Positions 7,033 through 9,760 are shown, counted from the first letter of the stretch. The stretch: 64,000 nt of DNA from Deltaproteobacteria bacterium (GCA_016202395.1 JACQOV010000095.1:1335-65334), one strand, 5' to 3'. Numbers and translations are program-made. The notes: generated from the letters alone by a model not told the origin.

Positions 7033-7097
7033 CTAAATTAAAAATTTGGCGCGCCCGGGAGGATTCGAACCTCCGACCCTCTGTTTAGCTTACTATT
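7033..7097 (-). repeat. Partial duplicate of the tRNA-Arg(UCU) 3' exon (with CCA) plus the last ~15 nt of its group I intron; an att-like direct repeat
   Basis: ggcgcgcccgggaggattcgaacctccgaccctctgtttagcttactattcc matches 9389-9445 (gtgcgcccgggaggattcgaacctccgaccctctgcttagcttactactcc) with 2-3 mismatches. The 5' half of the tRNA is absent. Confidence 0.8.
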
Positions 7098-7485
7098 CCT
7101 TAACAGAAAAACCTAGTTTAGCGGCTATCTTTTTTTGAGGAACGTCCAAAGTTAGAAAAAGCAGATCTGAGGACCGAGGGGACAAATAAAGGGCACATGC
7201 AAGATGCCACGCATCGGCACCCCGCAAATAACCCTGCTTTAATACTGCGCTGATCTCTGGATTCAAAGGACGATCTGGCAAAACCCACCGAACTGCATCC
7301 AGAGACGCGCTTGCGAATTGAATGTCGATGGCTTCTCGAACAAAAACGGATCGTAACTCAGCCTCCAGCAAATTGGAAGAGAAAACGGCATCGAGCTTTT
7401 GCAGCGACCGCCTCATCGCTTTTCCACCCCGCTCATTAAAGAGAATCGCCACAATAACAGAGGTATCGATGTAGGCGATTTTCAT
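7093..7485 (-). CDS. vapC: PIN-domain toxin (VapC family)
   Basis: 130 aa. MKIAYIDTSVIVA start with the conserved acidic PIN residues. Directly downstream of, and abutting, an antitoxin gene. Confidence 0.8.
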   Translation of the reverse strand: MKIAYIDTSVIVAILFNERGGKAMRRSLQKLDAVFSSNLLEAELRSVFVREAIDIQFASASLDAVRWVLPDRPLNPEISAVLKQGYLRGADAWHLACALYLSPRSSDLLFLTLDVPQKKIAAKLGFSVKE

Positions 7486-7755
7486 TTAGTCCCTGGATTG
7501 GAGAAATCGTCGCAGAGCCCCAGGCCGCTTGGCCATCGGTCGAATCTCTCCTGGACGAGCTGCAGAAGTCGTAATAATTCCGGAAAGTTCTAACTCACCC
7601 AATCGTTTAACGATGCCGTTGTGGGAAGTTAAAGGAACCACCTTGGCTATATCGTGCCCACGTTCTGTAATGATGACGAAGCGATGCTTCTTGACTAGCC
7701 GGATTACCTCGCTCAACCTGCTCTTGGCCTGGTAAATAGAATATCTTAAAGGCAT
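7486..7755 (-). CDS. Phd/YefM-type antitoxin
   Basis: 89 aa. The N-terminus (YSIYQAKSRLSEVIRLV..HRFVIITERGHDIAKVVPL) resembles the YefM/Phd fold. Its stop abuts the vapC start. Confidence 0.7.
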   Translation of the reverse strand: MPLRYSIYQAKSRLSEVIRLVKKHRFVIITERGHDIAKVVPLTSHNGIVKRLGELELSGIITTSAARPGEIRPMAKRPGALRRFLQSRD

Positions 7756-7881
7756 AAAGCAAGTATACTTAATCTGGTCAACTTGGTCAAGTCAAAATTG
7801 GCGCTCCCGACTGGACGCTTTTAGAACCGCGTGTGCTGAAATTACACTTACAGCCTGAAAATTTTGCATAGGCACTCCATT

Positions 7882-8883
7882 TTAAGTGCTTTGGGCCCTG
7901 ATTGCTTCAAAACCATTATTCAGCCGGTTTAAGAGAAACGGCTTCATGTTCTGAATTGCCTTTAACGGATCAATGCAATCAGCCTTTTCTATTTTTGAGA
8001 TATAAGGGCCGCTTCTTAACGATAATCTGATTATCGGTTCGTAATATTGACCAGTTTGAGGATTTACTGTGGCCAATTGCTCTATTTTGGCTAGTGCCGT
8101 ATGCCGTTTTGTCAGAATAACTTTATAGAAAACTAATGAAAATAGGCCAACCAAGATAACCAAATTACTGCTATGAGGATCTATACTACAGAACAATGTA
8201 TGGATTCCGAATGGAATTGGTCCAAACGCATTAATGATCGTTCGATCTTGCACAATGCTTACAATTGGGTAGTTGGGAAATTCTCCTGCTTTAATAAAAT
8301 TGCGAATAGCATCATATTCATTACCTTGTACTACGCCAGGACTACGTTGTTTGATCCACCACTCAAATGCGATTTTTGCAACTGCCCTCATGCAGAATGG
8401 ATTGTAAAAAATTGCGAAGTCGAAATGAAGATAAAAGGCCACGTCACTGATATCAGAAGACTGCATGTCTTCCCATGTAGTATTCGGATACTTTTCAGAA
8501 TAACTTTTCCTAGCCTCTTCAAGTTGATCAATAGGTCCTATAAAGGCAATTTTCTTTTTCTTACCATCAGAAGATATCGCTGTTTTATAGGAGAAAAGTC
8601 GTTGTTTAAGATCCTGTGGATTACGAACCTTTATCCGTTGTTTCACATCGCCAAAGTCAGCTTCTAACTCTAGCGCAGGGCGCTTGCCACGTTTCCCAGT
8701 AAGCTGAAGAAAGTTGGTAATAGGTGCGAGAGCCTTAATGATGACCTGTTCCACTTTCCCAAAATCATTGTTGCAAGATCGACCAACTGCACCTAACAGT
8801 GTTGGCCCCGTTCCTAATCCTTCGGGAATAATATGAGACTCGGAATCAGTTTCCTGGTTTTGACAATAAACACATTTAATCAT
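7882..8883 (-). CDS. Uncharacterised protein with an N-terminal HNH-like nuclease motif (HNH_5-like architecture)
   Basis: 333 aa. Begins MIKCVYCQNQETDSESHIIPEGLG...SCNNDFG (C-x2-C ... H ... C-N-N). The rest is uncharacterised. AT-rich codon usage. Confidence 0.55.
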   Translation of the reverse strand: MIKCVYCQNQETDSESHIIPEGLGTGPTLLGAVGRSCNNDFGKVEQVIIKALAPITNFLQLTGKRGKRPALELEADFGDVKQRIKVRNPQDLKQRLFSYKTAISSDGKKKKIAFIGPIDQLEEARKSYSEKYPNTTWEDMQSSDISDVAFYLHFDFAIFYNPFCMRAVAKIAFEWWIKQRSPGVVQGNEYDAIRNFIKAGEFPNYPIVSIVQDRTIINAFGPIPFGIHTLFCSIDPHSSNLVILVGLFSLVFYKVILTKRHTALAKIEQLATVNPQTGQYYEPIIRLSLRSGPYISKIEKADCIDPLKAIQNMKPFLLNRLNNGFEAIRAQST

Positions 8884-8894
8884 TGCTCAAGTCC

Positions 8895-9257
8895 TTAGTC
8901 CGGCTCCCTTTTCAGGCTTTGAATCAATTTTGTAAGCATCTGGCAAACAGCCTGAAGATCGTCGCGTAACTCTGTTTTCTGAATCTCAACAATCAATCCC
9001 AATTCAAAACCAAGCTCAATCAGCGGCACACATTCGAAGGCTGATCCGCGAGAAATAAAATAAAAATTAGCTTTGTCTTTGGCATGCCAACGTCCGGAGC
9101 CTTCGGCAAGATTAAGCGTAATGCTGGTAGCTGCCCTATTAAGTTGGTCGCACCAACTGTATTGGCCTTTGACTTCCTTTGTAATTGTTAAAATCTTTTT
9201 AGAAAAGCTGAGAGCTCTTTTATAAACGTCCAGATTTTCAAATGCGAATTGACTCAT
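8895..9257 (-). CDS. four-helix-bundle protein of the 23S rRNA intervening-sequence protein family
   Basis: Family-typical motifs FAFENLDVYKRALSF, NLAEGSGR and FISRGSAFE. The long ORF reaches 9383, but the family-typical start is the internal Met (MSQFAFENL) at about 9257. Confidence 0.7.
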   Translation of the reverse strand: MSQFAFENLDVYKRALSFSKKILTITKEVKGQYSWCDQLNRAATSITLNLAEGSGRWHAKDKANFYFISRGSAFECVPLIELGFELGLIVEIQKTELRDDLQAVCQMLTKLIQSLKREPD

Positions 9258-9391
9258 AACGTTTTCTCTTCCCGAAGAACGGATTACGAACCACGTGAAC
9301 GAAAATTTGCGGCATTTAGAACCGAGTAAAGACTTGTAATTCGTTGACGTTTTTCGTTTTTCGGGAAAAATTCGCTGCCGCAAATTTTTGG

Positions 9392-9760
9392 TGCGCCCGG
9401 GAGGATTCGAACCTCCGACCCTCTGCTTAGCTTACTACTCCCAGTTACCTGGGCCCTCCAGAGCGGAGGTTGTAGTCTGGACTATGTCTTCACCATTTCA
9501 GGTGTGCTGCGTATAGTCTCTGAGGACTCTCTCTGCCAATCATCCCGAACCAAAGGTGAAGGATCCCGTTATTCCTAGTGCATCGGGATCCTTCGTCCCT
9601 TCGGGACTCAGGATGACTTTGTATGGAGAGGTTGCCTGCAAATAATCCTAATTGAAATTAGGACTTCCTTGCATATAGCAGCATCCACTTTATGCGTTTT
9701 CATTCCGCATAAAGGCTCCTATTTGAAGGCAGATGCTCTATCCGCCTGAGCTACGGGCGC
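9392..9760 (-). tRNA. tRNA-Arg (anticodon UCU) interrupted by a group I intron; exon 1 is 9726-9760, exon 2 is 9392-9430, CCA encoded at 9389-9391
   Basis: Exon 1: GCGCCCG-UA-GCUC-AGGCGGAUA-GAGC-A-UCUGC-CUU. Exon 2: CUAA-GCAGA-GGGUC-GGAGG-UUCGAAU-CCUCC-CGGGCGC-A. The spliced product folds as a class I cloverleaf with anticodon loop CUUCUAA. Confidence 0.8.
9431..9725 (-). ncRNA. Group I intron (subgroup IC3-like, cyanobacterial tRNA-Leu(UAA)-intron type), 295 nt, no ORF
   Basis: P1: exon CUU pairs with internal guide GAG with U.G at the splice site. P10: exon CUA pairs with UAG. P2 hairpin CUUUAUGCG...CGCAUAAAG. Then GUGGAUGCU, R element CUCAGAGACUAUACG, P8 CACC-UGAAAU-GGUG, S element GAAGACAUAGUCC, and a terminal G. 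The sequence is near-identical in its core to Anabaena-type tRNA-Leu introns as I recall them. Confidence 0.8.

Follow-up and report, generated by a model that had tools for sequence, protein, structure and literature searches.

Positions 7100-9388 of a 64,000-nt stretch of DNA (hereafter the window; GCA_016202395.1 JACQOV010000095.1:1335-65334) from the metagenome-assembled genome (MAG) of an uncultured Deltaproteobacteria bacterium are probably all that is left, as cargo, of an integrative element that most likely relied on a tyrosine recombinase and that recombined with the 3' half of a tRNA-Arg(UCU) gene. This interval, referred to here as the islet, lies between two copies of the 3' part of that gene, and the tRNA gene itself is split by a predicted group I intron. 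The unusual detail is that the repeat, which is of the attachment-site (att) type, includes 11 nt of the intron; in all other respects the locus resembles an ordinary element scar.

A direct repeat of intron and tRNA sequence

The repeated block is 55 nt long. Its tRNA-proximal, attL-like copy (9387-9441, minus strand) is composed of the 3'-terminal 11 nt of the intron, the 42-nt 3' exon and 2 nt beyond it, and its distal, attR-like copy (7045-7099, minus strand) is a pseudo-3' half that lacks a 5' half and is identical to the proximal copy at 52 of the 55 positions, in the same orientation (blastn, E-value 6.8e-20). A direct-repeat search recovered the pair as 60 nt with 92% identity (7040-7099 and 9382-9441), and a degenerate 49-mer of the block matched at the two copies only, with 0 matches expected in 100 shuffles. 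The direct repeat pairs an intact tRNA gene with a displaced fragment of its 3' part. An earlier, first-pass annotation of the window had described such a repeat in the same orientation with two or three mismatches, which the three mismatches in 55 nt confirm. Its mixture of intron and exon sequence also stands, whereas the proposed division into about 15 nt of intron and 39 nt of tRNA gives way to 11, 42 and 2 nt. It had also suggested looking for additional copies across the genome; within the 64-kb window, blastn found none beyond these two.

The intron-derived part of the block is identical at 10 of 11 positions, and the chance of at least 10 of 11 matches is about 8e-6 by our own binomial calculation. 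Upstream of 7099, identity falls to background at once, without further intron or 5' exon sequence (blastn). No tRNA or tRNA 5' half is called at 7033-7130, in agreement with the lack of a 5' half noted previously, and the distal segment does not form part of a second complete tRNA gene. Of the three mismatches, one (G/A) affects position -8 of the intron, another (G/A) the base that opens the 3' strand of the anticodon stem, and the last (A/G) the discriminator. The second of these unpairs one stem position in the distal copy, and a broken stem pair together with a changed discriminator is what would be expected of an unconstrained relic. A perfect 33-nt stretch common to both copies spans the T-arm and the acceptor strand. 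At the other end of the block, the stop codon of the adjacent PIN-domain gene (7093-7095) falls within the intron-derived 11 nt of the distal copy.

The split tRNA-Arg(UCU) gene

The intact end of the repeat belongs to a tRNA-Arg(UCU) gene at 9389-9760 (minus strand), recognised with Rfam and ARAGORN, which consists of a 5' exon (9760-9726), a 295-nt intron (9725-9431) and a 42-nt 3' exon including CCA (9430-9389; CUAAGCAGAGGGUCGGAGGUUCGAAUCCUCCCGGGCGCACCA). When joined, the two exons form a canonical 77-nt tRNA-Arg(tct) in ARAGORN, and its intron mode calls the split tRNA at c[9389,9760]; a default tRNA scan of the window returned five tRNAs, none of them at 7033-7100 or 9389-9760. Read on the minus strand, the 5' exon ends in ...CUGCCUU. 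The intron, preceded by U at position -1 and ending in G, is inserted between U34 and C35; no other choice of splice sites gives the loop CUUCUAA. According to the Rfam alignment, U(-1) is paired with G in P1.

The group I model RF00028 is matched over its full length at 9458-9736 (minus strand; 45.1 bits, E-value 2.1e-9), short of the gathering score of 50. Relative to this model, the intron contains a 91-nt insertion where the consensus has 20, and this extra segment of about 90 nt (about 9520-9610) may explain the sub-threshold score. The segment resembles a long imperfect hairpin (TCATCCTGAG...GGATCCCG / CGGGATCC...CGGGATGA). The intron is predicted to be of the self-splicing group I type, and no endonuclease gene is encoded by its 295 nt. 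Bacterial tRNA-Arg(TCT) introns at this position have already been catalogued ("Arg (TCT) 34/35", supplementary file 2 of PMC13011429). The intron described here resembles them in its tRNA and site, U at -1, terminal G, short length and absence of an endonuclease gene, whereas it differs in falling below the Rfam gathering threshold and in carrying the insertion of about 90 nt; moreover, the surveys make no mention of mobile-element att sites overlapping an intron.

Genes between the repeat copies

Positions 7093-9260 are occupied by four genes, all on the minus strand like the tRNA, with non-coding gaps of only 126 and 128 nt, and all four apparently remain intact. The first gene after the tRNA (8895-9260) encodes a 121-aa four-helix-bundle protein of the 23S intervening-sequence (IVS) type, which matches PF05635 (E-value 1.3e-24, 86.9 bits, cutoff 33.8) and TIGR02436 (E-value 8e-24, 84 bits, cutoff 24). 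With regard to possible self-mobility of IVS-protein genes as units that seek out tRNAs, no other copy of this gene turned up elsewhere in the window or among 176 retrieved loci. It is followed by a gene for a 333-aa HNH_5-like protein (7882-8883) with an N-terminal Cys/His motif and a C-terminal region without a recognised fold. The third gene (7486-7755) encodes an 89-aa Phd/YefM-like antitoxin, whose matches to PF02604 (E-value 1.6e-5, 25.0 bits, cutoff 29.8) and TIGR01552 (20.7 bits, cutoff 20.8) fall below the cutoffs, and a promoter-like site is located just upstream of it (7790-7762, minus strand). Directly downstream, a 130-aa PIN-domain, VapC-like toxin (7093-7485; PF01850, E-value 1.2e-11) is encoded, the two genes abutting at 7485/7486.

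None of the four genes encodes a recombinase, and the gaps leave no room for an integrase remnant. The flanking small open reading frames (ORFs) gave no match, and no integrase motif was detected in the 64-kb window by a crude regular-expression scan, which is a weak test. The first-pass annotation had listed a VapC and Phd-YefM pair, an HNH protein and a 23S-IVS protein, with no integrase among them; this inventory is borne out by the matches to PF01850, PF02604, PF14279 and PF05635, some of which are below cutoff. The annotation had further regarded the cargo as putatively defensive; in PADLOC-DB 2.0, no match was found for the PIN protein, the 333-aa protein, the IVS protein or the ORFan described below, and the antitoxin gave a marginal one (E-value 0.0099).

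Type II toxin-antitoxin pairs generally stabilise the DNA that carries them, and the PIN/Phd pair plausibly stabilises the islet in the same manner. As in VapBC-like type II pairs on mobile DNA, a Phd-like gene directly precedes the PIN gene and a promoter-like site lies upstream; in contrast to them, the antitoxin match is below curated cutoffs and the pair is a predicted one.

The family of the 333-aa protein

The 333-aa protein belongs to a family of about 3,200 cluster representatives (3,185 at E-value <=0.001); members of this family recur in mobile contexts, the two closest relatives near tRNA ends. Its match to HNH_5 (PF14279) is weak (E-value 0.0015, 18.9 bits, below the cutoff of 27.5), and more distant homologs have precomputed PF14279 matches. 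Residues C4, C7, H17, C37 and N38 are invariant in the family, such that the HNH_5 pattern C-x2-C...H...C-N is kept, whereas the zinc-binding Cys C34 of more distant members is replaced by Gly in this clade. An AlphaFold model of the protein reached a mean predicted local distance difference test (pLDDT) score of 76.8 in only one of five models. Neither a Foldseek search against the PDB (E-value <=0.001) nor a sequence profile search of the PDB returned a solved structure resembling it.

The closest two relatives are encoded in the contigs L083 and L084, where the gene shows nucleotide identities of 84% and about 78-79%, respectively, to the window copy, and lies 0.2-1.6 kb from a tRNA 3' end. 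In both cases the homology stops within about 15 nt of the ORF ends, and because nucleotide homology is confined to the ORF, the gene appears to be a mobile single-gene cassette. At the start of L083 lies the 3' end of an Arg-like tRNA; behind it, a 13-codon stub of an IVS-protein gene is fused upstream of the 333-aa gene, and a 13-nt motif of the tRNA end recurs 71 nt after the gene with 12 of 13 positions identical (0.01 expected). Positions 1-1297 of L083 thus constitute a mini-islet of 1.26 kb with the same design as the islet and without the toxin-antitoxin pair, after which Rrf2 and cytochrome c genes follow. L084 (1-2616) begins with the 3' part of a tRNA-Ala(CGC) gene and a small lipoprotein-like ORF; a C-terminal Phage_integrase fragment (423-701, minus strand; PF00589, E-value 8e-12) is located 0.9 kb before the homolog of the 333-aa gene, with a 209-aa ORF between them. 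By this gene content, L084 appears to hold another decayed island that is linked to a tRNA and carries the same cargo gene.

Among more remote members of the family, that of L091 neighbours a large serine recombinase and a transposase, that of L086 an excisionase-like HTH_17/AAA_25 module with GmrSD and that of L094 a PIN-like toxin-antitoxin pair, and that of L085 lies in a phage-like region. A phage origin of the islet was also considered and is ruled against by the absence of any nucleotide match among 50,697 phage records and by the single, remote relative of the 333-aa protein in IMG/VR; in PHROGs, only a weak match without assigned function was obtained.

Flanking DNA and relatives of the locus

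The guanine-plus-cytosine (GC) content of the islet is 42.6%, compared with 48.5% for the window. This deficit is due to the 333-aa (39.6%) and IVS (41.3%) genes, as the PIN (47.3%) and Phd (49.3%) genes are at the genome level. The islet had previously been called markedly AT-rich, which holds for the former two genes and not for the toxin-antitoxin pair, and the most AT-rich gene lies outside the repeat. This gene (6388-7029, minus strand), with 33.8% GC the lowest of the neighbourhood, encodes a 213-aa multi-pass membrane protein in which four or more hydrophobic segments can be recognised; the ORF begins 17 nt past the CCA of the pseudo-tRNA, with no obvious ribosome-binding site. It is an ORFan, since only its self-match was found among 5.8 billion proteins and no family match was obtained. 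By our own estimate, an open frame of this length would arise by chance in such AT-rich DNA with a probability of about 1e-7.

A non-coding spacer (5922-6387) separates the ORFan from a tRNA-Pro(UGG) gene (5845-5921, minus strand), which was called by the default tRNA scan. The spacer contains clusters of short GC-rich hairpins resembling repetitive extragenic palindromic (REP) elements, of the type GTCATTCCC...GGGAATGAC (6141-6235); similar clusters occur at 58829-58911 and 32237-32528. No decayed copy of the tRNA 3' half that would bound the ORFan segment was detected between 5922 and 7040 (word size 7, E-value up to 10).

The spacing of the two tRNAs differs in the distant relative L089, whose mtgA is 66% identical to that of the window. 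Gene order is kept in this contig, with mtgA divergent from tRNA-Arg(UCU) and tRNA-Pro(UGG) following. Over its first 37 nt, L089 matches window positions 5922-5886 with 95% identity, and its tRNA-Arg(UCU) is intron-less and lies about 190 nt from tRNA-Pro(UGG), as against 3467 nt (5922-9388) in the window. Because the two tRNAs are so close in L089, the interval 5922-9388 looks lineage-specific. It is likely that tRNA-Pro(UGG) is the native downstream neighbour of tRNA-Arg(UCU), and the extra DNA is probably the whole of 5922-9388 instead of 7100-9388 alone, with the ORFan and spacer (5922-7044) probably representing an older foreign acquisition at the same hot spot, outside the repeat-bounded islet. 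The tRNA-side flank varies among relatives, given that a contig with an 82%-identical mtgA carries a different gene (557 aa) on that side.

Look-ups of identical proteins yielded nothing but short Logan contigs from the same organism. Two of these, from two runs, correspond to window positions 9900-9735 (L001) and 9386-7313 (L002); the break in L001 falls within the 5' exon of the tRNA and that in L002 lies 3 nt beyond its 3' end, just outside the proximal repeat copy. Graph assemblers are expected to break at repeated or polymorphic sequence, and these breaks could hide strain-level variation at the site.

Origin of the islet

The arrangement of an intact gene and a displaced 3' copy in the same orientation, with a block ending exactly at CCA, is the geometry of site-specific integration. 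Att blocks of the anticodon-loop class usually run from the anticodon-loop region or the anticodon-stem 5' strand to the tRNA 3' end, and the start of the block described here, 11 nt upstream of C35, lies about as far out as that of such a block in an unsplit gene. Under this scenario, the attP site of the incoming element would have carried about 53 nt of the tRNA gene, starting with the final 11 nt of the intron and ending with CCA. A complete tRNA gene that can be spliced would have been restored beside the element (9760-9389) by recombination, and the second copy of the 3' part would have been displaced to the opposite end (7099-7045), gaining three substitutions since; the assignment of either copy to element or host would depend on the same scenario. 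The integrase and excision genes would have been deleted later, and the remaining PIN/Phd pair would penalise loss of the islet. The simplest reading is a crossover at or close to the junction of intron and exon, with intron sequence already present in attP, which would imply that the element had previously cycled in hosts with an intron-bearing allele. A more specific version, in which the recombination core straddles the junction of intron and 3' exon, the intron takes the place of the anticodon-stem 5' arm and the integrase was specific for the intron-bearing tRNA-Arg(UCU) allele, is conceivable and rather doubtful.

This scenario makes explicit predictions. At the empty site, the tRNA 3' exon (...GGGCGC(A/G)CCA) would be followed by AATTTTTAATTTAGAACATGACC (window 7044 downwards), and the junction of an excised circle would read ...TTTTCTGTTAAGGAATAGTAAGCTAA...GGGCGC(A/G)CCAAAAATTTGCGGCAGCG. 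The first-pass annotation had expected an empty site in which the tRNA adjoins the 6388-7029 region. Such a site may represent only the last of several events, and the comparison with relatives has so far yielded the short tRNA-Arg to tRNA-Pro spacing of the distant L089 and not an uninterrupted site in a close relative. The same annotation had interpreted the locus as the footprint of an element without an integrase, whose attP carried the intron-exon junction. This is also our best explanation, strengthened by the relatives of the 333-aa protein and by L089, with the integration itself being deduced from its products and the AT-richness having been overstated.

Several observations weigh against integration by such an element. 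The islet contains no integrase, and no excised or empty form has been seen. The toxin-antitoxin pair is native in its GC content, and the ORFan, as the gene with the most foreign appearance, is outside the repeat, which consequently does not bound all of the foreign DNA. Regarding the relatives, the 13-nt repeat of L083 was found post hoc, the tRNA ends of L083 and L084 are at contig starts and may derive from incomplete tRNA genes, and L089 is distant, with synteny extending over three genes only. Close relatives are also lacking in the collections searched: the best RNase PH in a scan of genome contigs was 64% identical, the best mtgA in metagenomes was 52% identical, the exact pattern of the intron-exon junction was absent from viral and metagenome contigs, and no empty site in a close relative was found.

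Other explanations deserve consideration. The islet might still be mobile as a satellite or cis-mobilizable element (CIME) with usable att sites, being excised, integrated or carried along by an integrase that a related element provides in trans, either from elsewhere in the genome or upon later arrival at the same tRNA. The perfect 33-nt stretch in both copies, the four intact-looking genes and the presence of the same IVS-333 module beside another tRNA end in L083 are in line with continued mobility, as are the accretion and co-transfer documented for CIMEs with integrative and conjugative elements (ICEs) (PMC5704250). On the other hand, two of the three substitutions between the copies are in or near the likely crossover region (the intron-exon junction and the anticodon stem), and the crude motif scan revealed no integrase in the window. 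We regard present mobility as unlikely. It has also to be asked whether an integrase made the repeat at all. The distal copy could be the relic of a second intron-containing tRNA-Arg gene, tandem or element-borne, that was overwritten by insertions, or the product of an illegitimate duplication. Intron sequence in the fragment does imply an intron-containing template, the integrase is absent, and the window holds another unexplained, cargo-less duplicate of a tRNA 3' end (tRNA-Lys, 12208-12237). Nevertheless, the block stops at the CCA end and starts about where anticodon-loop-class att blocks start, no trace of intron or 5' exon exists upstream of 7099, a tandem duplication would copy the whole segment and not 55 nt of it, and the cargo family is linked to tRNA ends and recombinases elsewhere. 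In addition, we know of no transposon that makes 55-bp target duplications. An origin of this kind is thus quite unlikely.

A third scenario would involve the 333-aa protein itself as a free-standing homing endonuclease engaged in collaborative homing with the group I intron, in which case the duplicated junction would be a by-product of double-strand-break repair. The gene for this HNH-type motif protein lies 500 nt downstream of the intron-split gene and behaves as a single-gene cassette, and the 295-nt intron has no endonuclease of its own. Against such a role, most family members are encoded away from introns and tRNAs, the HNH_5 match is weak and C34 is Gly in this clade; the repeat also has the geometry of an att site, whereas homing leaves no displaced copy of a 3' exon 2.3 kb away. 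Collaborative homing is therefore highly improbable as the source of the repeat, and a decayed integrative element at the tRNA 3' end is the interpretation retained below.

Other tRNA-associated features of the window

Two further features are associated with tRNA genes in the window. The last 30 nt of the tRNA-Lys(CTT) gene at 12061-12133 (plus strand) are repeated at 12208-12237, 74 nt downstream, with 27 of 30 positions identical and no gene between them, and the intron mode of ARAGORN mis-joins the two copies. This duplicate could be an att-like scar whose element has been lost, or alternatively the stump of another tRNA. One of the lowest-GC stretches of the window (20831-23808), lying exactly between tRNA-Arg(TCG) and tRNA-His, is filled by an AbiEi/AbiEii pair on the minus strand (21870-23489, PF11459, E-value 2e-47; 20950-21873, PF08843, E-value 1e-37). 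Judged by these domain matches, the window appears to contain another small module, of the toxin-antitoxin or abortive-infection kind, next to tRNA genes; no direct repeat derived from a tRNA was detected in this region.

Relation to known elements and biological implications

Islands at tRNA genes, integrase-less derivatives and tandem arrays are textbook phenomena (PMC7192596, PMC5704250), and the overlap with an intron, only 11 nt long here, adds a detail of target sequence rather than a new mechanism. The islet shares with tRNA-targeting islands identified by Islander/TIGER (PMC7192596) an intact tRNA at one end, a displaced 3' copy at the other, accessory genes between them and a block that extends from the anticodon-loop region to the 3' end. 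It differs from them in its size of only 2.3 kb, in the lack of an integrase, which those pipelines require, and in that the upstream 11 nt of its repeat are intron, where the anticodon-stem 5' strand would normally be found. Tandem arrays at a single tRNA are common among such islands (PMC7192596). Another close parallel is provided by the streptococcal CIMEs, which have lost their integration and transfer genes and kept attL and attR, and which are often arranged in tandem with further decayed elements at the 3' end of a tRNA gene (PMC5704250). Since the islet keeps attL-like and attR-like copies and has no integration or transfer genes, it would be CIME-like by the published definition. CIMEs, in contrast, were defined in Firmicutes by descent from ICEs or integrative and mobilizable elements (IMEs) and by demonstrated mobilisation after accretion, whereas the islet is described from the sequence of a deltaproteobacterial MAG, and an ICE- or IME-type ancestor is hinted at only by L084, where an integrase fragment accompanies the homologous cargo gene.

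In archaea, integration into intron-containing tRNA genes is known, and attP has been proposed as a vector of introns (Krupovic 2019 and Sugahara 2012, as cited in PMC8371274). The archaeal elements resemble the islet in targeting intron-bearing tRNAs and in att sequences that can include intron, and differ in that archaeal introns are of the protein-spliced, bulge-helix-bulge type. In our literature search, no report of a bacterial att-type repeat overlapping a group I intron was found. If the recombination core of the islet indeed straddled the junction, the locus would represent a bacterial group I counterpart of the archaeal link between attP and tRNA introns, with intron-less alleles being immune to this element and intron-bearing alleles being immune to conventional ones.

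For annotation, the locus illustrates that a split tRNA-Arg(UCU) gene is missed by standard tRNA finders, that the pseudo-3' half should not be called a gene, and that the toxin-antitoxin pair and the HNH-like cassette are to be regarded as accessory DNA. The 333-aa family, which recurs in mobile contexts and has no solved relative, is a reasonable candidate for functional work. Should the crossover have occurred where intron and exon meet, integrative elements would find their target sites changed by group I introns in tRNA anticodon loops, and intron carriage would be linked to the susceptibility of a tRNA gene to island integration.

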